DNA from: Bacteroidota bacterium
GTDB taxonomy: Bacteria > Bacteroidota > Bacteroidia > 2-12-FULL-35-15
Length of the DNA stretch: 64,000 bases
Direction of reading: 5' to 3'
NCBI GenBank assembly: GCA_040389865.1
Contig: JAZJZM010000019.1
Span: forward strand, 17,423 to 81,422
Shown: piece by piece, positions 31,929-52,787 of the stretch
How the letters are laid out: each line of letters starts with the position of its first letter
How positions within the stretch are numbered: position 1 is the stretch's first letter
Made by a program: the position numbers and the translations under genes
The notes under the pieces: generated by a model
Told to the model about the DNA's origin: nothing
The model's database searches: none
Seen by the model: only the letters and a program-made list of their open reading frames with translations

Positions 31929-32597
31929 TTAATAGACAAATACTTCTGTATCAATTTCAAGTTTGTTTTCAACAAGACCAATTCCTGGCGCTGACCAAGC
32001 TGCACGTGCTGCATCTCTTTTTTCAGCCCAAGAACGAACTTTTCCTGTTAGAATAACTTTGTTCCCAATTGTTTCTATGTTGATTTTTTCTGCATCAATT
32101 GTTGCGCTCCTGTGGAATGCAGAAACGATCTTTGTTTTTATTTCTCTTGCAGTGACCTGTGGTGTTACTTTTATATTATTACTTATTCCACGAACCCCCA
32201 ATAAATATTGTACTGCGCTGCTTGCTGCGTTTTTTTGAAATTCCCAATCGGTTTCTCCTTCTAGTGTTAACCACCCGTCTTCTACCTTTAATTTTATTTT
32301 TTCTTGTTGAACTGCGCTATGCCATTTTAGAGCGCTAATTGCGGCTTCGGCTATTTCTGTATCACTCTTTTTTCCATGCCCGGCTAATTTCACTTCAATA
32401 TCCACAGCAACTGCTTTTACTCCGGTAACTCTTTTGGTCGCTTTTTCTGCGGTTAGTTTTTTGGAATATGTATCTACTAGTCCAGAAAGGGTTACGACTC
32501 CGTTTTTTACTGCTACTCCAATTTCTGTAGCTTTCATTAATGGTTCCCATTTAAGTTCGTCCATAACATCTTTTTGAATTTCTGAATCTGTTCTCAT
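31929..32597 (-). CDS. BON-domain protein (two BON domains; OsmY-like)
   Basis: '[19 protein letters not shown]' is a typical family start. The BON units are '[36 protein letters not shown]' and '[41 protein letters not shown]'. The ORF is open upstream to 32654. Confidence 0.75.
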
Positions 32598-32785
32598 ACT
32601 TTTTTGTTTTTTTAATAATAAATATTTAAATAATTTTATGCAAAGTAAACTCATTATTGAAATCTATTCAATGATGAATTACAAAAAATGGAATGATCCA
32701 CATCACGAGTTTATTTTTTTTAATTGAAAATTTTATTTGATTCATGATACGGTAAATTTTCAGAAAAAAAAGGTTTAGGACTTTT

Positions 32786-36314: not shown

Positions 36315-36687
36315 TAAAAAACAATAATTTTTTTTGATCGGATACACCGTATCATTTGCAAAAAAACAGAAACAGAACTAGTTTTTTTTCGTTTATCCAA
36401 TGTGTATTGATAAATATACCGCCATCAAAATTTATAGGTTCGGAGTCGGCATATTTTTAGAGAAATAGCAGTATCTCGATAAAAATCGTTAAGTTTAGCG
36501 GAAAGGAGCTGATTTTATTCATTCCTGTCAATATTATGGCTTGTTTTATTGTCTGCCAAAAAACACAAAAATGTGTGAATTATGTAACTTTTTGTAAAAG
36601 TTGTGTAACAAATACAATTTTAATTTTAATCACCTTTGTTAATATTGTTTTAAAACAAACAAGATTTTGAAATTATACATCAAATAC

Positions 36688-37248
36688 ATGGTAAGCGCCC
36701 GCTGTAAAATGGCGGTAAAAGAAGAGTTGAAGAAACTTGGATTGCATTTCACTCCCGTTGATTTAGGTGAGGTGGAGATCATGGAAAATATCACTTCGGA
36801 ACAGCGTGAACAGCTCAAAATTGCTTTACACGAGTCCGGACTTGAATTGATGGATGATAAGAGAGCTGTGTTGATCGAAAAAATAAAAAATGTAATTATT
36901 GAAATGGTTCATCATTCTGATGAAATGATCAAAATGAATTTTTCAGATTTTTTAAGTGAAAAATTAAGTCATGATTATACCTATCTGGCAAATTTGTTTT
37001 CTGAAGTTCAGGGTACTACAATTGAGCAATTTATCATCTCTCATAAAATTGAAAGGATAAAAGAATTGATGATCTATGGTGAACTTAACATTACGGAAAT
37101 TGCCTGGAAAATGAATTATAGTAGCGTTGCCCATTTATCCAACCAATTTAAAAAAGTTACTGGGCTTTCTCCTTCGCATTTTAAACAATTGAAGGATAAA
37201 AGACGCAGTCCGATTGAAGATATCGGAAATTCAAGCGAAATAAATTAA
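36688..37248 (+). CDS. AraC-family transcriptional regulator (small Bacteroidota type)
   Basis: C-terminal AraC HTH 'ITEIAWKMNYSSVAHLSNQFKKVTGLSPSHFKQ'. ATG 36688 ('MVSARCKMAV') is a family-typical start; the ORF track begins at TTG 36667. Confidence 0.75.
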   Translation: MVSARCKMAVKEELKKLGLHFTPVDLGEVEIMENITSEQREQLKIALHESGLELMDDKRAVLIEKIKNVIIEMVHHSDEMIKMNFSDFLSEKLSHDYTYLANLFSEVQGTTIEQFIISHKIERIKELMIYGELNITEIAWKMNYSSVAHLSNQFKKVTGLSPSHFKQLKDKRRSPIEDIGNSSEIN

Positions 37249-37271: not shown

Positions 37272-40200
37272 ATGGCAAAGAGAAAAAAATCGGAGGAATT
37301 AATTATTGCCAACAAGGAACTTATCTTTCAAAATGAAGAGAAGGAAAAGCGGGCAGAAGAGTTAATTATTGCAAATATCGAACTTGCTTTTCAAGATGAA
37401 GAAAAAGAAAAACGTGCTGCGGAGTTAATTTTAGCTAACATAGAGTTAGCTTTTCAGGATGTGGAGAAAGAAAAAAGAGCGGCTGAATTAATTATTGCTA
37501 ACAAGGAACTTGTATTTCAAAACGCAGAGAAAGAAAAACGTGCGGCCGAGTTGATCATTGCTAATAAAGAACTTGTTTTTCAAAATGATGAGAAAGAAAA
37601 ACGGGCTGAGGAATTGATCGTTGCTAATAAAGAACTTGTTTTTCAGAATGATGAAAAAGAAAAACGTGCTGCGGAGTTGATCATTGCAAACAAAGAACTT
37701 GTTTTTCAAAACGATGAGAAAGAAAAACGTGCCGCTGAGCTGATCGTAGCTAACAAAGAACTTGCTTTTCAAAACGAAGAGAAAGAAAAACGTGCAGCCG
37801 AGTTAATTGTTGCTAATAAAGAACTTGTTTTTCAGAATGATGAAAAAGAAAAACGAGCTGCGGAGTTGATCATTGCAAACAAAGAACTTGTTTTTCAAAA
37901 CGATGAGAAAGAAAAACGTGCCGCTGAGCTGATCGTAGCTAACAAAGAACTTGCTTTTCAAAACGAAGAGAAAGAAAAACGTGCAGCCGAGTTAATTGTT
38001 GCTAACAAAGAACTTGCTTTTCAAAATGACGAGAAAGAAAAACGAGCGGCTGAGTTGCTCATCGCTAATAAAGAACTGATCTTTCAAAACGATGAGAAAG
38101 AAAAACGAGCGGCAGAGCTAATTGTAGCGAACAAAGAACTTGCTTTTCAAAATGATGAAAAAGAAAAACGTGCAGCCGAGTTATTCATAGCTAATAAAGA
38201 ACTTGTATTTCAAACCGGGGAAAAAGAAAAACGTGCCGCGGAGTTGGTAATAGCCGACATAGAGCTTGTTTTTCAAAATAAAGAAAAAGAAAAGCGCGAA
38301 ATCGCAAATAAAGAACTTGAAGCATTAAGTTATTCCGCAAAATTAGCATCTCAATATTCTCTTAGCCTGATTGAAGCAAGTCGGGATCCCTTAGTTACTA
38401 TCAGTACAGAAGGCAAGATCACTGATATGAATCAGGCAACTGTAAATATAACAGGCTTGACTCGTGAAAAACTTACGGGTACCGATTTTTTTGATTATTT
38501 CACCGAACCACAAAAGGCACGTGAAGTATATCAGGAAGTATTTGCGAAAGGATCTGTTGCCGATTCTCCGCTTACTCTTCGTCATAAAGCAGGGAAACTT
38601 ACTGATGTATTGTTCAATGGCTCGGTTTATAAAGATGATCAGGGAAATGTACTGGGAGTGGTGATCGTGGCGAGAGATGTTACTGCCCAAAAATTACTTT
38701 CTAAATATTCGTTAAGTCTTATTGAGGCAAGTCTTGATCCATTGGTTACGATAAGTACTGAAGGTAAGATCACGGATATGAATGAGGCCACTGCAAATAT
38801 TACCGGTATGAGCCGTGACCAATTAACGGGTACCGATTTTTTTGATTATTTCACCGAACCACAAAAGGCTCGTGAAGTTTATCTGGACGTGTTTGCGAAA
38901 GGTTCTGTTGCCGATTCTCCACTTACACTTCGTCATAAGGATGGGAAGCTTACGGATGTATTATTCAACGGATCGGTTTATAAAGACGACAGAGGGAATG
39001 TGCTTGGTGCCGTTGTGGTAGCAAGAGATATTACTGAACAAAAAAGAATAGCAACTGAATTGACTGAAGCGAAAATATTTGCCGAGTTGGCAACAGGTAT
39101 TGCGGAGGAAGCAAAAGCTAAAGCCGAAAGTGCCACACGAATAGCCGAAGATGCCGTGAAAGCGAAGCAACAATTTTTGTCAAACATGAGTCACGAAATT
39201 CGTACACCAATGAATGCGATCATTGGATTTACGAAAGTAGTATTAAAAACAGAGCTGTCGGTAAAACAAAAGGAATATTTGTCGGCCATAAAAATGAGTG
39301 GTGATGCATTGATCGTGCTCATTAACGATATACTCGATCTTGCTAAGGTAGATGCAGGAAAAATGTCCTTTGAGAAAACACCTTTCAAAATGAAAGCATC
39401 CATAGCATCCATGCTTCATTTGTTTGAGACAAAAATTCAGGAAAAGAATTTACAGCTTGTTAAGGAATACGACAATAAAATTCCTGATGTGTTAGTTGGC
39501 GATCCGGTTCGTTTACACCAGATCATATTAAATTTGGTGAGTAACGCTGTAAAGTTTACAACTTATGGAAAAATTACTGTAAGTGTTCATTTAGTGAGTG
39601 AGGACGAAGAAAAAGCAACCATTGAATTTGCAGTTATGGATACCGGGATTGGAATAGCGGAAAATAAAATAGAAAGAATCTTCGAAAACTTTCAGCAGGC
39701 AACCAGCGGCACTTCAAGATTATTTGGTGGAACAGGATTAGGACTTGCAATTGTTAAACAATTGGTAGAACCGCAAGGGGGAAGTCTTTTTGTAACAAGT
39801 AAAATTGATGAGGGTTCTACTTTTAGTTTTACGTTAACTTTTCAAAAAACAAAAGCGGAAGCCGAATTGGTAACTGAAGTTGCGGAATTGGATTCCGAAA
39901 TAAAAAATATAAAAGTATTGGTGGTGGAAGATATTGCACTCAATCAATTACTAATGAAAACATTGTTGGATGATTTCGGATTTGAACGCGATATTGCTGC
40001 AAATGGACAAATAGCCATCGAAAAATTGCAAGCTAAATCTTATGATATTATTTTGATGGACTTGCAAATGCCTGTAATGAATGGCTTTGAAGCTACCGAA
40101 TATATTCGTAATAAAATGAATTCTAAGATCCCGATCATCGCCTTAACTGCCGATGTAACTACAGTGGATCTGGCAAAATGCAAAGCGGTTGGCATGAATG

Positions 40201-40676
40201 ATTATATTGCAAAGCCTGTTGATGAAAGAGTATTATATAGTAAAATAGTGGGCCTGGTAAAAAAGCCTGTATTTGTTAATATCCAAAAGGAAAAAGAAAA
40301 CATTGAAACTGAGAAGTTAAAATGTATTGACCTGAAATATTTAAACCACCGCACAAAATCAAATCCAACAATAATGATGGAAATGATTTCACTTTATTTG
40401 GAGCAAACTCCACCTTTGATCAGCACAATGAAACAAAGTTTGTTGGATCAGGATTGGAATTCATTGCGCGCTGCAGTACATAAAATGATTCCCTCCTTTT
40501 CAATAATGGGCATTCATATAGATTTTGAAAATATGGCGAAAAAAGTTCAGGAGTATTCAAGTATCCAGGAACGAACGCATGAGATACATGACTTAGTGAT
40601 ACAGCTTGAAGATGTTTGTTTACAGGCATGTAAAGAGTTGGAAGAAGAATTTAATACGATTAAAAATAAGAAATAA
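37272..40676 (+). CDS. Hybrid sensor histidine kinase: 16 x 21-aa coiled-coil repeats, 2 PAS, HisKA, HATPase_c, REC, HPt
   Basis: Repeats 'ELIIANKELVFQNDEKEKRAA' x16. PAS blocks 'LIEASRDPLVTIS.EGKITDMN.AT.NITG'. H-box 'SHEIRTPMNAIIGF'. G2 box 'GGTGLGLAIVKQLVE'. REC 'ILMDLQMPVMNGFEAT'. HPt 'AVHKMIPSFSIMG'. Confidence 0.9.
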   Translation: MAKRKKSEELIIANKELIFQNEEKEKRAEELIIANIELAFQDEEKEKRAAELILANIELAFQDVEKEKRAAELIIANKELVFQNAEKEKRAAELIIANKELVFQNDEKEKRAEELIVANKELVFQNDEKEKRAAELIIANKELVFQNDEKEKRAAELIVANKELAFQNEEKEKRAAELIVANKELVFQNDEKEKRAAELIIANKELVFQNDEKEKRAAELIVANKELAFQNEEKEKRAAELIVANKELAFQNDEKEKRAAELLIANKELIFQNDEKEKRAAELIVANKELAFQNDEKEKRAAELFIANKELVFQTGEKEKRAAELVIADIELVFQNKEKEKREIANKELEALSYSAKLASQYSLSLIEASRDPLVTISTEGKITDMNQATVNITGLTREKLTGTDFFDYFTEPQKAREVYQEVFAKGSVADSPLTLRHKAGKLTDVLFNGSVYKDDQGNVLGVVIVARDVTAQKLLSKYSLSLIEASLDPLVTISTEGKITDMNEATANITGMSRDQLTGTDFFDYFTEPQKAREVYLDVFAKGSVADSPLTLRHKDGKLTDVLFNGSVYKDDRGNVLGAVVVARDITEQKRIATELTEAKIFAELATGIAEEAKAKAESATRIAEDAVKAKQQFLSNMSHEIRTPMNAIIGFTKVVLKTELSVKQKEYLSAIKMSGDALIVLINDILDLAKVDAGKMSFEKTPFKMKASIASMLHLFETKIQEKNLQLVKEYDNKIPDVLVGDPVRLHQIILNLVSNAVKFTTYGKITVSVHLVSEDEEKATIEFAVMDTGIGIAENKIERIFENFQQATSGTSRLFGGTGLGLAIVKQLVEPQGGSLFVTSKIDEGSTFSFTLTFQKTKAEAELVTEVAELDSEIKNIKVLVVEDIALNQLLMKTLLDDFGFERDIAANGQIAIEKLQAKSYDIILMDLQMPVMNGFEATEYIRNKMNSKIPIIALTADVTTVDLAKCKAVGMNDYIAKPVDERVLYSKIVGLVKKPVFVNIQKEKENIETEKLKCIDLKYLNHRTKSNPTIMMEMISLYLEQTPPLISTMKQSLLDQDWNSLRAAVHKMIPSFSIMGIHIDFENMAKKVQEYSSIQERTHEIHDLVIQLEDVCLQACKELEEEFNTIKNKK
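37296..38304 (+). repeat. 63-bp tandem repeat array (16 units) encoding a 21-aa (three-heptad) coiled-coil repeat
   Basis: Several units are identical over more than 120 bp, e.g. 37650-37780 and 37840-37970. Confidence 0.9.
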
Positions 40677-41110
40677 TGAAAAACGAAAGCAAAATAAAAC
40701 TTTTCCTCGTAGATGACGATGCATTGTTTTTAAAATCCTTGGAAATTGAGTTTCTGGAACACGCGGATTTTACAATTGAAACATATTCAACAGGTGAACT
40801 TTGCCTTAAAAATATATCTCACAGCCCTGATGTGATCATTTTAGATTATCACCTTGATGGCATCGATAAAAATGCGATGAATGGAATGGAAACATTGGAT
40901 AAAATAAAAGCTTCCCATCCTGATATTCCTGTAATAATGCTATCTTCTCAGGATAAAATTGATGTTGCCATAAACTGTATGCATCACAGAGCCTTTGATT
41001 ATGTGGTGAAAAGCGAAACCGCTTTCATGCGTCTGCAAAAGATCATCACAACTATTTTCCGTTATAAAAAAATGGAAAAAGAATTAAGTTGGTATATGGA
41101 TAGGATGTAA
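40676..41110 (+). CDS. Single-domain response regulator (REC)
   Basis: 'KLFLVDDDALFL', 'ILDYHLDG..MNGMETLDKIK' and 'FDYVVKS'. The ATG overlaps the kinase stop (TAATG), implying translational coupling. Confidence 0.85.
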   Translation: MKNESKIKLFLVDDDALFLKSLEIEFLEHADFTIETYSTGELCLKNISHSPDVIILDYHLDGIDKNAMNGMETLDKIKASHPDIPVIMLSSQDKIDVAINCMHHRAFDYVVKSETAFMRLQKIITTIFRYKKMEKELSWYMDRM

Positions 41111-41433: not shown

Positions 41434-44400
41434 ATGAGATCGATCGCTACCACTAAAAAGAAGAAATCACCAACCAAAAAAAATGTTGAAGATCATTCTT
41501 TTCCTATCGTGGCTATTGGCGCTTCATTAGGTGGTTTAGAAGCGCTTACCTCTTTATTGAAAAATTTACCTTCCAATACCGGAATGGCATATATTTATGT
41601 GCAACACTTAAGCCCTGACCATAAAAGTTTACTAACTTCTATAGTATCCAAGATAACTAAAATGAAAGTTCAGGAGATAGAGGATATGGCGCACATGGCT
41701 CCGGATAATGTGTATGTGATCCCCTATAATAAAATAATTAAAGTTACTGACGGACACATTAAATTGCTTCCCCGTCCAAAAAGCAGTTCTGCCATTTCCA
41801 TTGATGTTCTGTTCTCGTCACTTGCTAAAACGCATAAAAAGAATGTTATTGGTGTGATCCTTTCTGGCAGCGGCACTGATGGTACAAACGGATTAAAAGC
41901 GATCAAAAAAGCGGGAGGAATGACAATTGCACAAGATGATTCCGCGCAAGCAAACAGTATGCCCAACTCGGCTATTGCCTCTAATGTTGTTGATTTTATT
42001 TTATCTCCTAAAGAAATTGCCGGGCATTTAGCAACATTTAGCAAAAATGATTTTTTGAAACCTGACCTTGAAAGTAAACAGAAAGAAGAAGTTAGTGAAA
42101 ATAGTAATCATGATCTGAAAACTATTTTCGGAATTTTATTTAAAAAAACCGGTGTGGACTTCAATCATTATAAGATGTCCACCATTAAAAGGCGATTGAA
42201 CAATAAAATGCTTCAATGCGGAGTAAAAACAGTAAAGGAATATGTAAAATTATTGCTCAAAAAAAACAGTGAGGTTGATCTTCTTTACAAGGATCTGCTT
42301 ATTAACGTAACTAGTTTTTATAGAGATAAGGACGCATTTCAGTATTTAAAAACAACCTTGTTTCCAAAGCTTCTTGAGGGTAAAGCACCGGGAGAAGTAA
42401 TTCGGATATGGATTCCAGCCTGCTCTACCGGTCAGGAAGCTTATTCCATTGCCATGATGCTGACTGAGCTGCAGGAAAATAAAAAAAAGAAAATACCTTT
42501 CCAGATCTTTGGTACCGATCTTAGCGATCAGGCAATTAGTGCTGCACGCAAAGCCGAATATTCGGCAAGTGATCTTATTCCTATTTCAAAGAAATTCAAA
42601 GATCGTTACTTTACTAAAACGGGTGACAACTACCGTATTGTTAAAGAGCTTCGCGAATTGTGTGTATTTGCTCCTCATAATATTCTGCGCGATCCACCTT
42701 TTTCACGTATGGATTTTATCAGTTGTCGCAATCTTCTTATTTATTTTGATTCTTCTGCACAGAAACGGGTTTTTTCAATCCTGCATTTTGCTTTGAATAA
42801 CCAGGGGAGTTTAATGCTTGGTCAAGCAGAAACGGTAGGCACGTCTTCTCAGCTTTTTATCACTACAAATGCTAAATTTAAGATTTACTCTCGTAAAAAG
42901 AGTACCGGAGTGAGGAAGATACTTGAATTAACACCACATTTTCCGCGTACAAATTTTTATAGTAAAAAAATAAACACACCTGTTAAAAGTTTGAGCGTAA
43001 ATTTAATGGGTGTTGAGAATGCTATTGATTCTGCTATTCTCTCAAAGTACATGCCTGCGTGTGCAGTTATAAACAAGGACATGGAAATTCTCCAGTTCAG
43101 AGGACCGATCTCTTTATTTCTCGCACATCCTTCCGGCAAAGCAAGTCTAAATATTTTAAAAATGACAAGACCTGAATTTGCCTTTGAACTTCGTAATGCA
43201 ATTCAAAAAGTAATAAAAACAAAACAGTCGGTGCAAAAAGCGGGCATCGAAATTAAGGTCGAGTCTGTTTTTCGTATGATGTCTTTGGAAGTTTCTCTTC
43301 TTAAGATTGATTGGGACGAGCCATTGCTACTTATTGTTTTTACATTACAGGAACAGGTTGAAAAATTTATTGAAATTGGTAATAGCGGGAAAAGCAATTC
43401 GATCCATGATGCCCAAAGAATAGTAAAGCTGACCGAGGAGTTGAACAATACCCGGATGGAAATAAATTCCATTATCGAATCGCAAGAAGCTACTTTCGAG
43501 GAATTACAAGCAGCCAATGAAGAAATTGTTTCAAGTAATGAAGAGTTTCAAACCTTAAATGAAGAACTTGAAACATCGAAAGAAGAAATTGAGACTACCA
43601 ATGAAGAGCTAATTTCTATCAATCAGGAATTACAAATGCGTAATGATCTTTTAACAGAATCGCATGAGTATTCGGAGGCCATCATTGCTACCATCCATGA
43701 GCCTATGCTTGTGCTAAACAAGGACTTTATTATACAATCCGCCAATAAATCGTATTATAAAAAATTTCTTGTTAAAAAAGAAGAAACGGAAAAGAAATTG
43801 TTTTTTGAATTAGGAAATAAGCAATGGAATATTCCAAAACTTCGTGAGGTGTTAAATGATATTCTTACCAAAAACAAGAGTTTTGAAAATTTTGAAGTGA
43901 CACATGCATTCCCGGGAATAGGCGAAAAAATAATGTTGCTTAATGCACATCTTGTCCTTCAAAAAGAGAACAGAGAACAACTAATTCTGCTTGCCATTGC
44001 TGATGTTTCCGAGTTAAGGAGATTGAGTATAGAGCTCAAAGTGAAAGACGCTAAAGTATTAAAAAACGAAGAGAAAGGGAAATGGGCGGCAGAGTTAGTT
44101 ATTGCCAACAAAGAACTTGCCTTTCAAAATGAGGAGAAAGAAAAACGAGCAGAGGAGTTGATCATTGCCAATAAAGAACTTGTTTTCCAGAACAATGAAA
44201 AAGAAAAACGTGCTGCGGAGTTGGTCATTGCAAACAAAGAACTTGCTTTTCAAAATGATGAAAAAGAAAAACGTGCTGCCGAGTTAGTAATTGCAAACAA
44301 AGAGCTTGCATTTCAAAACGAAGTGAAAGAAAAACGAGCTGCTGAGTTGGTTATTGCAAACAAAGAACTTGCTTTTCAAAATGATGAGAAGGAGAAACGT

Positions 44401-46944
44401 GCAGCCGAGTTAGTTATTGCAAACAAAGAACTTTTATTTCAGGCAGGCGAGAAAGAAAAACGAGCAGCCGAGTTAGCCATTGCAAAAATAGAACTTGACT
44501 TTCAAAATAAAGAGAAAGAAAAACGGGAAATTGTAAATAAAGAACTTGAAGCGTTCAGTAATGCAACTAAATTAGCATCTCAATATTCTCGAAGTTTGAT
44601 CGAAGCAAGTTTAGATCCGCTTGTTACTATCAGTGCAGAAGGAAAGATATTGGATGTAAATAATGCATCGATAAAAGTGACGGGTGTTCCACGTGATAAA
44701 CTCATTGGCACTGATTTCTCCCGTTATTTTACAGAACCATTAAAAGCACAAGAAGGCTATAAGCAGGTTTTTGAAAAAGGATCTGTGTCGGATTATCCTT
44801 TAACAATAAAACATAAAAATGGAAACTTAACGGATGTATTGTACAATGCATCTGTTTATAAAGATGAGAAAGGTAATGTTCTTGGAGTTTTTGCTGCTGC
44901 ACGTGATATAACCGAACAAAAAAGAATTGAAGTTGATCTGGGTAAAAGTTTAAAGGAAATTTCGGATTACAAATATGCACTTGATGAATTTTCTATTGTT
45001 GCCATCACAGACCAGAAGGGAATTATCAAACATGCAAATGACAACTTTTGCAAAGTTTCAAAATTCACGAGAGAGGAATTAATAGGCGCGGATCATCGCA
45101 TTATTAATTCCGGCCATCATCCGAAAGAATTTATCAATGATTTATGGACAACAATTGCCAATGGCGGGATTTGGAGAGGTGAATTAAAAAATGCGGCAAA
45201 GGATGGAACTATTTATTGGGTGAATACTACTATTGTTCCTTTCCTGAATGAACAAGGAAAACCTTACCAGTATGTTGCAGTAAGAACGGACATTACCGAT
45301 CAAAAAAGAATAGAAACAGAATTGATAGAAGCAAAAGTGTTTGCTGAGTTGGCAACCGGTATTGCAGAAGAAGCCCAGAGCAAGGCGGAAAGCGCTACAT
45401 TAATAGCTGAAGATGCGGTGAAAGCGAAACAGCAGTTTTTATCAAACATGAGTCATGAAATCCGCACACCAATGAATGCGATCATTGGATTTACCAAAGT
45501 GGTATTGAAAACAGATCTAACGACAAAACAAAAGGAATATCTTTCAGCGATAAAAATGAGTGGTGATGCATTGATCGTACTTATAAACGATATCCTTGAT
45601 TTGGCAAAGGTAGATGCAGGCAAAATGACATTTGAGAAAACACCTTTCAAAATGGAGTCTTCCATTTCAGCGATGCTCCATTTGTTTGAGACAAAAATTC
45701 AGGAAAAGAATTTGGAATTAGTTAAAAAATACGATAGTAATATTCCTCAAGTGTTAATAGGTGACCCGGTTCGCCTGCATCAGATCATTTTAAATTTGGT
45801 GAGTAATGCAGTGAAATTTACAACAAAAGGGAAAATTACTGTTAGTGTTCTTCTATTAACTGAAGATGAAAATAATGCAAGCCTGGAATTTGCGGTTTCG
45901 GATACCGGAATAGGCATAGATGGAAACAAAATAGAACATATTTTTGAAAATTTTCAGCAAGCTTCAAGCAGCACTTCAAGGTTGTTTGGTGGGACAGGTT
46001 TAGGCTTGGCCATTGTAAAACAATTGGTAGAACCTCAGGGAGGTAGCATTAGGGTGAAAAGTAAAATTGGTGAAGGTTCTACTTTTAGTTTTATATTAAA
46101 TTTTCAAAAAACAAAGGCTGAAGCAGAATTAGAAACAGAAATGCTGGAGTTGGATACTGAGATCAAAAACATAAAAGTATTAGTGGTTGAAGATATTCCA
46201 CTTAATCAACTATTGATGAAAACACTATTGGATGATTTTGGATTTGAACGTGATATCGCTTCAAATGGAAAAATTGCCATCGAAAAGCTGCAAACTAAAT
46301 CGTATGATATTATTTTGATGGATCTGCAGATGCCTGAAATGAATGGATTTGAAGCAACAGAATACATTCGTAATAAAATGAATTCTAAGATCCCTATTAT
46401 GGCTTTAACGGCCGATGTGACCACCGTTGATCTGGAAAAGTGCAGAGCCGTTGGGATGAACGATTACATTGCAAAACCCGTTGATGAAAAATTATTGTAC
46501 AGTAAAATAATTAGTTTAGTAAAAAAGCGAATGCCTTTAAAAACGAAGGAATCTATTGGAAATGAAAATAATTTCAATGAAAAATTAAAATGCACTGACC
46601 TGAAATATTTAATAAAACGCACAAAAAATAGTCCGAAATTAATGATGGAAATGATCTCACTTTATTTGGAACAAACTCCACCTTTAATCAACTCAATGAA
46701 AAAAAGCGTGCAGGATAAAGATTGGGATTCGCTATACGCAGCAGTGCATAAAATGATACCATCCTTTTCAATAATGGGTATGAGTATTGATATTGAAAAT
46801 ACAGCAAAAAGAGTTCAGGAATACGCAGGTACAAAACAACGAACTGAAGAAATTTCAGGCTTGGTTTTACATCTCGAAAAAGTTTGTGCACAAGCATGTA
46901 AAGAATTGGAACTGGACTATACGAATTTTAAAAATGCTGGCTAG
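41434..46944 (+). CDS. CheB methylesterase - CheR methyltransferase fusion to a PAS/hybrid histidine kinase (1,836 aa)
   Basis: CheB motifs 'IVAIGASLGGLEAL' and 'ILSGSGTDGTNGLKAIKKAGGMTIAQD'. CheR SAM-site motif 'IRIWIPACSTGQEAYSIAMML'. An 'EEL(Q/E)(S/T).NEEL' heptad linker. 7 x 21-aa repeats. 3 PAS. H-box 'SHEIRTPMNAIIGF'. HATPase_c, REC, HPt. Confidence 0.9.
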   Translation: MRSIATTKKKKSPTKKNVEDHSFPIVAIGASLGGLEALTSLLKNLPSNTGMAYIYVQHLSPDHKSLLTSIVSKITKMKVQEIEDMAHMAPDNVYVIPYNKIIKVTDGHIKLLPRPKSSSAISIDVLFSSLAKTHKKNVIGVILSGSGTDGTNGLKAIKKAGGMTIAQDDSAQANSMPNSAIASNVVDFILSPKEIAGHLATFSKNDFLKPDLESKQKEEVSENSNHDLKTIFGILFKKTGVDFNHYKMSTIKRRLNNKMLQCGVKTVKEYVKLLLKKNSEVDLLYKDLLINVTSFYRDKDAFQYLKTTLFPKLLEGKAPGEVIRIWIPACSTGQEAYSIAMMLTELQENKKKKIPFQIFGTDLSDQAISAARKAEYSASDLIPISKKFKDRYFTKTGDNYRIVKELRELCVFAPHNILRDPPFSRMDFISCRNLLIYFDSSAQKRVFSILHFALNNQGSLMLGQAETVGTSSQLFITTNAKFKIYSRKKSTGVRKILELTPHFPRTNFYSKKINTPVKSLSVNLMGVENAIDSAILSKYMPACAVINKDMEILQFRGPISLFLAHPSGKASLNILKMTRPEFAFELRNAIQKVIKTKQSVQKAGIEIKVESVFRMMSLEVSLLKIDWDEPLLLIVFTLQEQVEKFIEIGNSGKSNSIHDAQRIVKLTEELNNTRMEINSIIESQEATFEELQAANEEIVSSNEEFQTLNEELETSKEEIETTNEELISINQELQMRNDLLTESHEYSEAIIATIHEPMLVLNKDFIIQSANKSYYKKFLVKKEETEKKLFFELGNKQWNIPKLREVLNDILTKNKSFENFEVTHAFPGIGEKIMLLNAHLVLQKENREQLILLAIADVSELRRLSIELKVKDAKVLKNEEKGKWAAELVIANKELAFQNEEKEKRAEELIIANKELVFQNNEKEKRAAELVIANKELAFQNDEKEKRAAELVIANKELAFQNEVKEKRAAELVIANKELAFQNDEKEKRAAELVIANKELLFQAGEKEKRAAELAIAKIELDFQNKEKEKREIVNKELEAFSNATKLASQYSRSLIEASLDPLVTISAEGKILDVNNASIKVTGVPRDKLIGTDFSRYFTEPLKAQEGYKQVFEKGSVSDYPLTIKHKNGNLTDVLYNASVYKDEKGNVLGVFAAARDITEQKRIEVDLGKSLKEISDYKYALDEFSIVAITDQKGIIKHANDNFCKVSKFTREELIGADHRIINSGHHPKEFINDLWTTIANGGIWRGELKNAAKDGTIYWVNTTIVPFLNEQGKPYQYVAVRTDITDQKRIETELIEAKVFAELATGIAEEAQSKAESATLIAEDAVKAKQQFLSNMSHEIRTPMNAIIGFTKVVLKTDLTTKQKEYLSAIKMSGDALIVLINDILDLAKVDAGKMTFEKTPFKMESSISAMLHLFETKIQEKNLELVKKYDSNIPQVLIGDPVRLHQIILNLVSNAVKFTTKGKITVSVLLLTEDENNASLEFAVSDTGIGIDGNKIEHIFENFQQASSSTSRLFGGTGLGLAIVKQLVEPQGGSIRVKSKIGEGSTFSFILNFQKTKAEAELETEMLELDTEIKNIKVLVVEDIPLNQLLMKTLLDDFGFERDIASNGKIAIEKLQTKSYDIILMDLQMPEMNGFEATEYIRNKMNSKIPIMALTADVTTVDLEKCRAVGMNDYIAKPVDEKLLYSKIISLVKKRMPLKTKESIGNENNFNEKLKCTDLKYLIKRTKNSPKLMMEMISLYLEQTPPLINSMKKSVQDKDWDSLYAAVHKMIPSFSIMGMSIDIENTAKRVQEYAGTKQRTEEISGLVLHLEKVCAQACKELELDYTNFKNAG
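44087..44535 (+). repeat. 63-bp tandem repeat array (7 units); paralogous to 37296-38304
   Basis: 'AELVIANKELAFQNEEKEKRA' units. The nucleotide sequence is near-identical to the repeat units of the first kinase. Confidence 0.9.
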
Positions 46945-50609: not shown

Positions 50610-52439
50610 CTAAGGCTTTGGAATTAATTTTAATTTCGCACTCAGCTCTTTTACCTCCAACTTTGTTTTCTCCACATTTTCCTGGAATTCCATAATTAAT
50701 GGATTAGTACTTTTTGATTTTCCGAAAAAGCTCAGATTGTTTTCCAATTGGTCCACTTCAGTTTGAAGTTTTTTAATTTTATCTTGAAGCACCGTACGCT
50801 CTTTTCTTATTTGCTCCATCCCTTGTGGAGATTTAAGCATTTGCTCATATTTTAAACGGTAGAACATTTTATCATCCACATTTGATTTCACCTTCATTCT
50901 TTCAAGCAAGTTTTCAATTGCCTTACCAAAAGCGTTGTTAAGTCTATCACTGTCCTTTAAAGGTGTTTCACCTACAAGAGCCCACTCTTCCTGTAATTTT
51001 TTCAGTTCCTCAATACTTTGGTGGATATCTTCAGAAGGCGCAAACAGATCAGTTTTTGCAATAAGTGCTTCTTTGGCCTGAATATTTGCTTTAAGAGTGT
51101 TTTCCTTCTCCACAACCTGGTTGGTCTTGCTTTCAAAAAAATGATCACAGGCTTTACGGAATCGCTTCCAAACAGCGTCAGAGTCTTTGGTTGCAACCTG
51201 TCCGATGGTTTTCCATTCCACTTGCAGTTTTTTTAATACTTCCGCAGTGGCAATCCATTCGGAGCTTTCCTGCAATGCTTCCGCTTTTAAGCAAAGCGCT
51301 ATTTTCTTTTCAAGATTGCCTGAGAATTCGGTGCGTTGCTTCGCATAAAACTGATCCAGCCCCTGGTGTAAAAGCACACGGGCTGTTTTAAAGCGCGTCC
51401 AGCATTTTCCATTATCACTTTTTGGAACAAAACTTATTTTTTGCCAGGCCTCCCATATAGCATTCTCTTTTTCAGTTGCTTCGCGACAGCCTTTATGTGA
51501 AACAAACTCTTCTTGACCAAGTAGTTCTATTTGCTCACACAAAGCTAATTTGGCAGCAAGGTTACTTTTTTGTTGTTTTTGTATTTGAGCTGTATGTTCT
51601 TTTTTACGTTCAACTATTTTATCACCTGCAGTTTTAAAACGCAGCCATAAATTATCTTTTAATTCTCTGCCCGAATTTCGGATCTCACTCCATTCTTCCT
51701 GCAGCATCGTAAGGGCTTCCAATGCTTTCTTTAAGGAAGGTTCTGCATTCAAGAGTTCTGCCTTTTCACAAAGTTGGATTTTATACTCAACGTTTTTTTT
51801 CTTATCCAGTACATTCAGTTCATTGTTGATCTTCACCATGTCATAGAACTTACCTGTAAGAAAAAAATAATTTTCTCTTAACGTATGCGTATCTTGGATC
51901 GGGACATTGCCTGTAACGCGCCATTTACTTTGAAGTGCCTGAAACTTGTGGTACGAAGCCGAGAAGTTCTCATTACCTTTTAACAGCTCTTTTAATTCTT
52001 CAATGATCAACTTTTTTGTTGAAAGATTCTCCTGTGCTGATTTTTCCTTTTGCTTTCGCTGAAGTACTTTTTTAGCGTTTAAGCTTTTCCAGACCTGTTC
52101 TGCTTTTTCATCCAAAGGGTCTGCCTTGGGTTCAAAATCTTCGGCAGGACTGCCGTCTTCAGTGAAAATTTGAAGTTTGCGATCATACTCTTCCTTTGCC
52201 AGTTCATCTAATTTTTTTTTAATGATCACTGCTGCAGGAAATATTGAATGTACCTCTTCCTGTTCCAGGTATTCAGTTAGCTTATCTATAAGTTGAGTTT
52301 TACTCAAGCCTTCTATTTCGTCTTCAGAAATGAGTACATCAACATTTTCTGATTCTAATTCATCAGTAGAGATTACCGGAATTGCCACCTGCGTAGGATC
52401 TTCATTTACTACCGGGTTCTTTTCTTCATTATTTTGCAT
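50610..52439 (-). CDS. DUF349-domain protein
   Basis: About six repeats of the DUF349-type unit '..LQEEW..IG.....D..LW.RF..A.D.FF..K'. ATG 52439 ('MQNNEEKNPV') is the likely start; the ORF is open to 52475. Confidence 0.7.
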   Translation of the reverse strand: MQNNEEKNPVVNEDPTQVAIPVISTDELESENVDVLISEDEIEGLSKTQLIDKLTEYLEQEEVHSIFPAAVIIKKKLDELAKEEYDRKLQIFTEDGSPAEDFEPKADPLDEKAEQVWKSLNAKKVLQRKQKEKSAQENLSTKKLIIEELKELLKGNENFSASYHKFQALQSKWRVTGNVPIQDTHTLRENYFFLTGKFYDMVKINNELNVLDKKKNVEYKIQLCEKAELLNAEPSLKKALEALTMLQEEWSEIRNSGRELKDNLWLRFKTAGDKIVERKKEHTAQIQKQQKSNLAAKLALCEQIELLGQEEFVSHKGCREATEKENAIWEAWQKISFVPKSDNGKCWTRFKTARVLLHQGLDQFYAKQRTEFSGNLEKKIALCLKAEALQESSEWIATAEVLKKLQVEWKTIGQVATKDSDAVWKRFRKACDHFFESKTNQVVEKENTLKANIQAKEALIAKTDLFAPSEDIHQSIEELKKLQEEWALVGETPLKDSDRLNNAFGKAIENLLERMKVKSNVDDKMFYRLKYEQMLKSPQGMEQIRKERTVLQDKIKKLQTEVDQLENNLSFFGKSKSTNPLIMEFQENVEKTKLEVKELSAKLKLIPKP

Positions 52440-52787
52440 AATACAAATTTTAAAAATATTATTTGGATAGCCCAATTTATCGGATCAATGGTTTTTAACC
52501 AAATAAGATCTTATCAAGCTCAAGCTCTTATGCATCTAATTTACAACAATTTTTAAAATGGACATTTAAAATAAAATAAAAGCTTCAAGTTGTTTAATGT
52601 TCAATATCTATAAAGCGATTACTTTATTAAAAGGAATGTGTGTTTTTGAAATGAAAACGATGCGGAAAATTCAGGAGATCTTTTTGAAGGTTTTTCGAAA
52701 ACAGAAAAAGCTCCCAAAGTGTTGATTTTCTATAAAATGCAGTTTTTATTCACAATTTTAATATTGTTTAATCAGAAGTGAATTTCT

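Follow-up and report, generated by a model that had tools for sequence, protein, structure and literature searches.

Two neighbouring sensor kinases, here called kinase 1 and kinase 2, are encoded in a 64,000-nucleotide stretch of a Bacteroidota metagenome-assembled genome (MAG; assembly GCA_040389865.1, contig JAZJZM010000019.1, positions 17,423 to 81,422; hereafter, the window), and each contains a tandem array of 21-residue units specified by 63-bp DNA repeats. This repeat occurs widely, has no name of its own and represents a variant of a signalling coiled-coil type already known. That the array is alpha-helical and derived from the signalling helix (S-helix) we regard as probable. The full explanation, in which the arrays are iterated S-helix cores that form one helix per chain and a dimeric rod, and in which units turn over without changing helical phase, has in our estimate somewhat better than even chances of being correct.

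The two kinases, their arrays and the junctions that follow them are located as follows (window coordinates; the kinase assignments are based on the list of open reading frames (ORFs), their translation and Pfam):

37272..40676, + strand, kinase 1 ORF, 1134 aa
37290..38297, + strand, kinase 1 array, 16 in-frame units of 63 bp (21 aa) with the consensus AAELIIANKELVFQNDEKEKR
37620..37997, + strand, 189-bp three-unit tandem duplication in the kinase 1 array (37620-37808 versus 37809-37997, 1 mismatch), absent from L010, a related MAG introduced below
38298..38360, + strand, conserved kinase 1 junction, a partial unit and linker (EIANKELEALSYSAKLASQYS) that leads into the PAS N-cap helix
41434..46944, + strand, kinase 2 ORF, 1836 aa
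44062..44085, + strand, degenerate half unit KNEEKGKW at the start of the kinase 2 array (the Ala next to it is taken as residue 1 of unit 1)
44086..44526, + strand, kinase 2 array, 7 full units of 63 bp
44527..44592, + strand, kinase 2 junction (EIVNKELEAFSNATKLASQYSR), a paralogue of the one in kinase 1, leading into the PAS domain

The kinase 1 protein (identical to MES2140730.1 from a Bacteroidota MAG) consists, according to Pfam, of a short basic N terminus, the 16-unit array, two PAS domains, HisKA, HATPase_c, REC and Hpt, the Hpt match being weak and under the Pfam cut-off. In kinase 2 (identical to MES2140732.1), the order is CheB, CheR, a segment of NEEL heptads, a PAS-like stretch, the 7-unit array, two PAS domains, HisKA, HATPase_c and REC; the stretch between the NEEL segment and the array has no separate Pfam row and PAS-like is our reading of it. 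The C-terminal region of kinase 2 is similar to the weak Hpt match of kinase 1; Pfam gave no Hpt hit there.

Tandem Repeats Finder detected a 63-bp period in both genes, i.e. 15.8 copies at 37299-38293 in kinase 1 (80% matches, score 1017) and 7.3 copies at 44063-44525 in kinase 2. Together with the in-frame translation, this agrees with the 16 and 7 units that a reading of the window from its letters alone (hereafter, the original prediction) had given. Kinase 1 reads MAKRKKS, then 16 times 21 residues, then the partial unit EIANKELEA, while the kinase 2 array closes with the partial unit EIVNKELEA; thus, each array passes into its PAS domain through a conserved partial unit.

At the DNA level, the units are far less alike than had been proposed. 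The claim that many units are identical over more than 120 bp did not hold: there is a single such exact repeat, of 149 bp (37668-37816 = 37857-38005), which lies inside the 189-bp duplication, and no other exact match, within one array or between the two, exceeds 47 bp. The 189-bp duplication is recent. Outside it, pairs of units differ at 8-23 of 63 bases (13-35%), mostly synonymously, and the pairwise codon differences among the 23 window units comprise 1684 synonymous and 947 non-synonymous ones, the latter mainly at positions 2, 5, 6, 9, 12 and 16 in our reading of the per-position counts. Eleven positions have the same residue in every one of the 23 units (E3, L4, A7, E10, L11, F13, Q14, K18, E19, K20 and R21). 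Position 16 is the most variable (D in 10 units, E in 6, K in 2, G in 2, and A, V and N once each), in line with the one variable position singled out by the original prediction. Because the units are diverged, and mainly synonymously, they are old copies under purifying selection and not a freshly homogenised array. As a separate observation, interior units of the kinase 1 array and of the kinase 2 array differ by as few as 4 of 63 bases, and gene conversion between the two arrays is therefore possible.

The S-helix is a coiled-coil segment of ~40 residues (5 heptads) that is normally found just before DHp, PAS, GGDEF or similar signalling domains; it carries ERT at positions c, d and e of its central heptad and discriminates against non-polar residues at the R and T positions, and tandem arrays of it are not described in the paper that defines these features (Anantharaman, Balaji and Aravind 2006, PMC1592074). 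In the array unit, which reads EKEKRAAELIIANKELAFQ, the S-helix signature ERT-AEL-xxANKEL is seen as KRA-AEL-IIANKEL, and comparison with canonical kinases in the same hit set places the match of the unit in the C-terminal core of the S-helix. Moreover, S-helices and units follow each other in phase within natural proteins. Two homologues (P0131 and P0134) run from the DIT motif of a PAS domain through QRTAQLETANKELVFQH-EKEKRAAEL into the array, with an ERT/QRT S-helix in phase with the units; two further ones (P0157 and P0211) follow the same course with ERT and QRT, again in phase with array units, and the last unit of the array in P0061 also shows an S-helix in phase with the units. The array of P0237 ends in KRTAELIIANKELGQFAYIASHDL, with an Arg-to-His spacing of 20 as in the canonical S-helix/DHp sequences aligned with it. 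Similarly, ANKELEALSYS at the kinase 1 junction matches the canonical boundary between S-helix and DHp, ANKELEAFSYS, and some family members keep KRT or ERT in their terminal units. In 48 cases, a count that includes related proteins, the distance from the last unit to the phospho-His was 6 mod 7 in 26, at five different lengths, and 2 mod 7 in 9, a preference for one heptad phase.

Like the S-helix, the array is heptad-based and predicted to be helical, lies directly before a PAS N-cap or the HisKA H-box of cytoplasmic signalling proteins, and has R-x-A-E-L-x-x-A-N-K-E-L with its conserved Asn; the two are interchangeable, in phase, in natural proteins. By contrast, the S-helix is a single module of ~40 residues between two domains, whereas here a three-heptad, 21-residue piece is iterated 2-20 times across the family, and 7 and 16 times in the window. 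The ERT of the S-helix is usually KRA here (all 23 window units have K-R-A, or K-R-E/S at array edges, with the Arg invariant), hydrophobic residues occupy positions where the S-helix is acidic, and the array can be at the extreme N terminus. Two forms of array-to-PAS junction were seen, a long one (KEKRE-IANKELEAFSYSxKLASQYSLSLIEAS) and a short one (AAELIIAN-YARSLIEAS).

AlphaFold2, supplied with a 17-sequence alignment of the last seven units and the first PAS domain, returned a single continuous helix spanning residues 2-173 with a predicted local distance difference test score (pLDDT) of 73-84, followed by a low-confidence linker and a PAS fold. In a fold search with this model, only the PAS part was matched, chiefly to LOV and PAS domains with flanking helices. 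Each unit has two hydrophobic triplets, LII and LVF, 7 residues apart, and then a nine-residue charged block. The model made without an alignment, from the sequence of kinase 1 residues 1-480, folds the array part (residues 1-340) as regular strand-loop units. A single charged alpha-helix was considered as another candidate and rejected, since by our count each unit has only about three i to i+4 acid-base pairs and it contains two hydrophobic triplets.

Several observations weigh against a coiled coil derived from the S-helix. In the single-sequence model of kinase 1 residues 1-480, AlphaFold2 produced beta strands, although at a pLDDT of 45, too low to be reliable. The LII and LVF triplets span ~200 degrees of the helix surface and form no classical a/d zipper, and the 3.5-residue harmonic is weak, accounting for 5-6% of the variance in hydrophobicity; the hydrophobic moment of the unit is 0.20 per residue versus 0.44 for the GCN4 zipper. 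The a/d hydrophobics and strong 3.5 periodicity of a canonical two-stranded leucine zipper are thus lacking. The original prediction had placed L, I, L and F at the a and d positions; however, L4 and L11 share one heptad position and I6 and F13 share another, two residues further on, so that these are two separate positions and no a/d pair, and the assignment cannot hold. In the register that aligns the unit with the S-helix, which is our own assignment, position a is L, L and K and position d is A, Q and R. It follows from the triplet pattern that I6 and F13 would be exposed in a simple two-stranded coil, and a simple dimer explains neither this exposure nor the conservation of every charged residue; both would allow for a second interface, to a partner or to other arrays. 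The discrepancy between helix and strand models may reflect this non-canonical hydrophobic pattern. The kinship with the S-helix has difficulties of its own: most units have Ala in place of the discriminating Thr and Lys in place of Glu, the long and short array-to-PAS junctions differ by 15 residues, which is no multiple of 7, and some array-to-S-helix links are, by our count, offset by 4. An hhalign comparison with an S-helix profile reproduced the alignment of the unit at 43% identity over 28 columns, including a 4-residue gap; its E of 0.004 speaks for kinship, its probability is only 8%, a low value because the profiles are short. The in-phase substitution in natural proteins is the stronger argument for kinship.

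The number of units in the arrays shifts on evolutionary timescales. When genomes were scanned with kinase 1 stripped of its repeat, the closest was L010, another Bacteroidota MAG, with a syntenic contig of ~93-94% DNA identity. The survey of unit number in orthologues that had been proposed with the original prediction gave, for kinase 2, 7 units in the window, 8 in L010 and 8 in a third MAG; the extra unit in L010 (AELIIANRELAFQNDEKEKRA) is not a copy of a neighbouring unit, and the 8-unit array of the third MAG has yet another interior. For kinase 1, it gave 16 units in both the window and L010, with interiors that are not orthologous unit for unit: units 1-8, 15 and 16 pair one to one with those of L010 (1-6 base differences), units 9-11 of the window correspond to the duplication missing from L010, and in L010 five alternating IF/AF-type units take the place of two in the window. 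Thus, at least two events separate two arrays with the same total, and between relatives the edge units are conserved while the interior units vary. In 11 orthologous unit pairs of the window and L010, 49 of 693 bases differ, corresponding to 42 synonymous and 4 non-synonymous codon changes, a further sign of purifying selection; in the kinase core, 113 of 2376 bases and 11 of 792 residues differ.

More distant relatives vary further. Loci with a MAKRKKS-like start and a core 74-79% identical to that of kinase 1 have 6, 7, 9 and 12 units, as counted with a regular expression that may miss degenerate units; a strictly conserved array length did not hold up against these counts. Among 160 loci chosen by their kinase core, we found 87 arrays of 2-16 units (median ~6), the longest being those of kinase 1 and its L010 orthologue. 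A metagenome scan for strain-level relatives found none closer than 84%. The expectation that units are gained and lost is supported by the 7 versus 8 units of kinase 2 and the rearranged interiors of kinase 1, but not in the form of frequent slippage of the contingency type: phase-variable loci have near-perfect, fast-changing repeats, whereas here the units are old and 13-35% diverged save for one duplication, and only a few array events separate genomes that differ at ~6% of bases.

The repeat is common. A two-unit profile searched at E ≤0.001 against 1.84 billion representatives (clusters at 50% identity) matched 1,938 clusters, of which 601 reach 1e-30, and a word-indexed search returned more than 6,700 proteins among the matches listed. 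The named sources are mostly Bacteroidota (Mucilaginibacter, Flavobacterium, Puia, Ferruginibacter and Ginsengibacter), with one Methylococcales; recurrence of the repeat in Bacteroidota, which had been surmised, is therefore borne out. Across the family, arrays contain 2-20 units; they precede PAS or HisKA, stand between the two or lie at the extreme N terminus. Within the 150 best representative clusters, single arrays reach 20, 19, 18, 16 and 16 units, and 6-8 is the most frequent number. Accordingly, the view that arrays of this length are unusual is apt for the 16 units of kinase 1, which fall in the upper tail, but not for the 7 units of kinase 2. One class of kinases has no other sensor domain: after a basic N terminus resembling that in kinase 1 (MxKKKSDELIIA) come 10-13 units, an S-helix and HisKA/HATPase_c. 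The kinase cores of this class are 51-87% identical, and the sample, being ranked by score against a long (16-unit) query, is biased toward long arrays.

We propose that the S-helix core is copied, over three heptads, in every 21-residue unit and that tandem amplification generated what may be called a poly-S-helix. Each chain would form one continuous alpha-helix which, from helix geometry, would measure ~3.1 nm per unit, i.e. ~50 nm for 16 units and ~22 nm for 7 units, and would continue without a break into the N-cap helix that begins the first PAS domain or, in other family members, into the DHp helix. By analogy with S-helices and DHp helices, parallel pairing would be the most likely arrangement of the two helices in the kinase dimer. 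The kinase 1 array could serve as a long dimerisation and positioning rod that clamps and positions the PAS dimer; since nothing lies upstream of it, it would there be neither a stalk nor a transmitter. Of the original prediction of a coiled-coil stalk adjustable in 3-nm steps, the helical structure is supported by the AlphaFold2 model (pLDDT 73-84) and the step would agree with the ~3 nm expected from geometry, but a stalk is not what kinase 1 appears to have. In kinase 2, the array could link the CheB-CheR-PAS module rigidly to the PAS-PAS-kinase module. Unequal recombination or slippage between units with exact matches of 20-50 bp may account for the gain and loss of units. Because 21 residues are three heptads, such changes would alter length and keep helical phase, and the variants would be tolerated.

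Besides the S-helix, two known systems come closest to the arrays. The cytoplasmic domains of chemoreceptors fall into heptad-length classes, form antiparallel hairpins and have undergone symmetric insertions and deletions of heptads; in them, as proposed here, signalling coiled coils evolve in length by whole heptads with the register kept. In contrast to the parallel rod of near-identical 21-residue units proposed here, they are not known to contain near-identical tandem units. The coiled-coil linkers between PAS/LOV and DHp domains (for example YF1/FixL) are a few heptads long and unique in sequence. As in the arrays, the helix continues the N-cap or C-terminal helix of a PAS domain, and the distance to the phospho-His is heptad-periodic; the arrays here differ in comprising 147-336 residues of repeated sequence.

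Four other explanations were weighed against iterated S-helix cores. The array could itself be an input or assembly module and not a passive rod, either as a highly charged helix of marginal stability that would pair according to temperature or ionic strength, or as a sticky repeat by which different array-bearing kinases (kinases 1 and 2, for instance) join into larger assemblies, pairing out of register or with one another. The many kinases composed only of a basic N terminus, 10-13 units, an S-helix and HisKA/HATPase_c would suit such a role, as would the conservation of all 21 unit positions, charged surface residues included, the possibility that I6 and F13, which lie off the main stripe, form a second interface, and the adjacency of kinases 1 and 2 with units as close as 4 of 63 differences. 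However, neither a stimulus nor hetero-association is directly evidenced, the sample of array-only kinases has the bias toward long arrays noted above, and most array proteins also have PAS domains as possible sensors; we therefore consider this explanation rather unlikely. We are equally doubtful of its more specific form, in which the arrays would be a distinct, length-coded poly-S-helix module, acting as the sole input of the array-only kinases or as a docking surface for mixed kinase assemblies, and in which selection would adjust the number of units in each orthologous class. A repeat of the beta-hairpin or solenoid type, with ELIIA and ELVFQ as strands and the Asn-Lys of ANKE as the turn, corresponds to the single-sequence AlphaFold2 model, in which each unit is a 15-residue strand element plus a 6-residue loop; alternation along a strand would also put L4, I6, L11 and F13 on one face, which would fit the invariant residues better than a heptad does. 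Against this, the consensus is without Gly or Pro, the units merge unbroken into S-helices and DHp helices, and beta-type harmonics (periods 2.1-2.3) are weaker still than the 3.5 harmonic; with pLDDT 45 versus 73-84, the single-sequence model was set aside for the alignment-based helical model, and a beta repeat seems quite improbable.

The remaining two explanations concern how the arrays were assembled in silico and how they might be modified. The window and its relatives are all MAGs, and the unit numbers, or the three-unit duplication, could be assembly artefacts, in which case the differences between genomes would not be biological: the partial kinase 1 homologue P0270 is on a contig that ends inside the array, and the 149-bp exact core of the 189-bp duplication is long enough to confuse short-read assemblers. 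Outside the duplication, however, differences at 8-23 of 63 bases make the placement of units unambiguous, two independent assemblies give 16 kinase 1 units with orthologous edge units, the additional kinase 2 unit of L010 is distinct in sequence and not a copy, and every ORF is in frame. Because the units are distinct, an artefact is unlikely for most of the array and possible for the 189-bp duplication; overall, we judge this explanation improbable. Finally, the units could be substrates of the CheR and CheB domains of kinase 2, which are in the same chain as its array, with Glu/Gln near the variable position being methylated and demethylated; the units are Glu-rich, and the original prediction had suggested that the variable position is surface-exposed and possibly modified. 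Nothing supports a modified residue there. The consensus for chemoreceptor methylation is small-small-x-x-E/Q-E/Q-x-x-small-small, and the unit, compared by eye, does not conform to it; for this reason the candidate was rejected. Moreover, none of the 120 closest array proteins lists CheB or CheR in precomputed Pfam annotation, kinase 1 has neither, and position 16 is simply the least constrained position. A role as CheR/CheB substrate is thus highly improbable.

In total, about two thousand protein clusters contain the repeat, mostly two-component kinases of Bacteroidota, and we found no family model, solved structure or description of it. There is no Pfam or NCBIfam model for the repeat, sequence and profile searches of the PDB with the repeat gave no match, and motif strings (ANKEL, ANKELAFQ, EKEKRAAEL and others) retrieved nothing relevant from the searchable literature; keyword searches of the literature returned only the S-helix paper and general linker papers, with no tandem arrays described. 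Automated annotation instead puts the label of an unrelated PH-domain family on the repeat. PF24081 (SLA1-like PH) matches kinase 1 residues 3-38 (window 37272-37390) with 30.3 bits versus a cut-off of 27; no matched stretch reaches the cut-off by itself, and the region is predicted to be helical by the alignment-based AlphaFold2 model. The match is very likely a systematic false annotation of repetitive charged sequence. The same PF24081 label is precomputed on dozens of array homologues.

If the arrays are iterated S-helices, they would offer a natural series of 2-20 units for testing how, and over what distance, a conformational signal or a dimerisation constraint is carried along a coiled coil, and the kinases made of an array plus a catalytic core raise the question of whether the repeat helix is itself a sensor. 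Some array proteins are from strain-designated genomes (Mucilaginibacter, Flavobacterium and Hymenobacter), for which culture work may be possible. For annotation, array length is to be treated as an evolving character, and short-read assemblies can break inside arrays.

Two further genes belong to the immediate neighbourhood of the kinases, both assigned by Pfam:

36667..37248, + strand, AraC-type helix-turn-helix regulator gene directly upstream of kinase 1
40676..41110, + strand, stand-alone receiver (REC) gene between kinases 1 and 2

Other neighbouring genes encode Usp, BON and TerB proteins. The C-terminal cores of the two kinases are paralogous (39023-40552 versus 45285-46911), with ~80-81% DNA identity via L010. 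The PAS-PAS-kinase-REC core of kinase 1 is 70-85% identical at the protein level across MAGs labelled as different Bacteroidota orders, and it is also present in MAGs labelled Akkermansia, Saccharibacteria and Polyangiaceae. Sensor kinases are seldom so alike, and either horizontal spread or contamination during binning may lie behind this.

Repeats of other kinds are present in the same genes and nearby. The two PAS domains of kinase 1 are near-duplicates of one 117-residue unit, and the pair is detected as a tandem repeat with a 351-bp period (38349-39001, 1.9 copies, 83% matches), which suggests that a whole PAS domain was duplicated in tandem fairly recently beside the array. In kinase 2, just past CheR, a repeat with a 21-bp period (43516-43607, 4.4 copies) encodes NEE(L/I/F) heptads (SSNEEFQTLNEELETSKEEIETTNEELISINQEL); this is a second heptad segment, distinct from the 21-residue array. 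The ORF of a BON-domain protein (31929-32654) holds a short 27-bp tandem repeat (32413-32464, 1.9 copies), and an ORF of 621 aa on the - strand (50610-52475) encodes another helical-repeat protein, with five DUF349 repeats.

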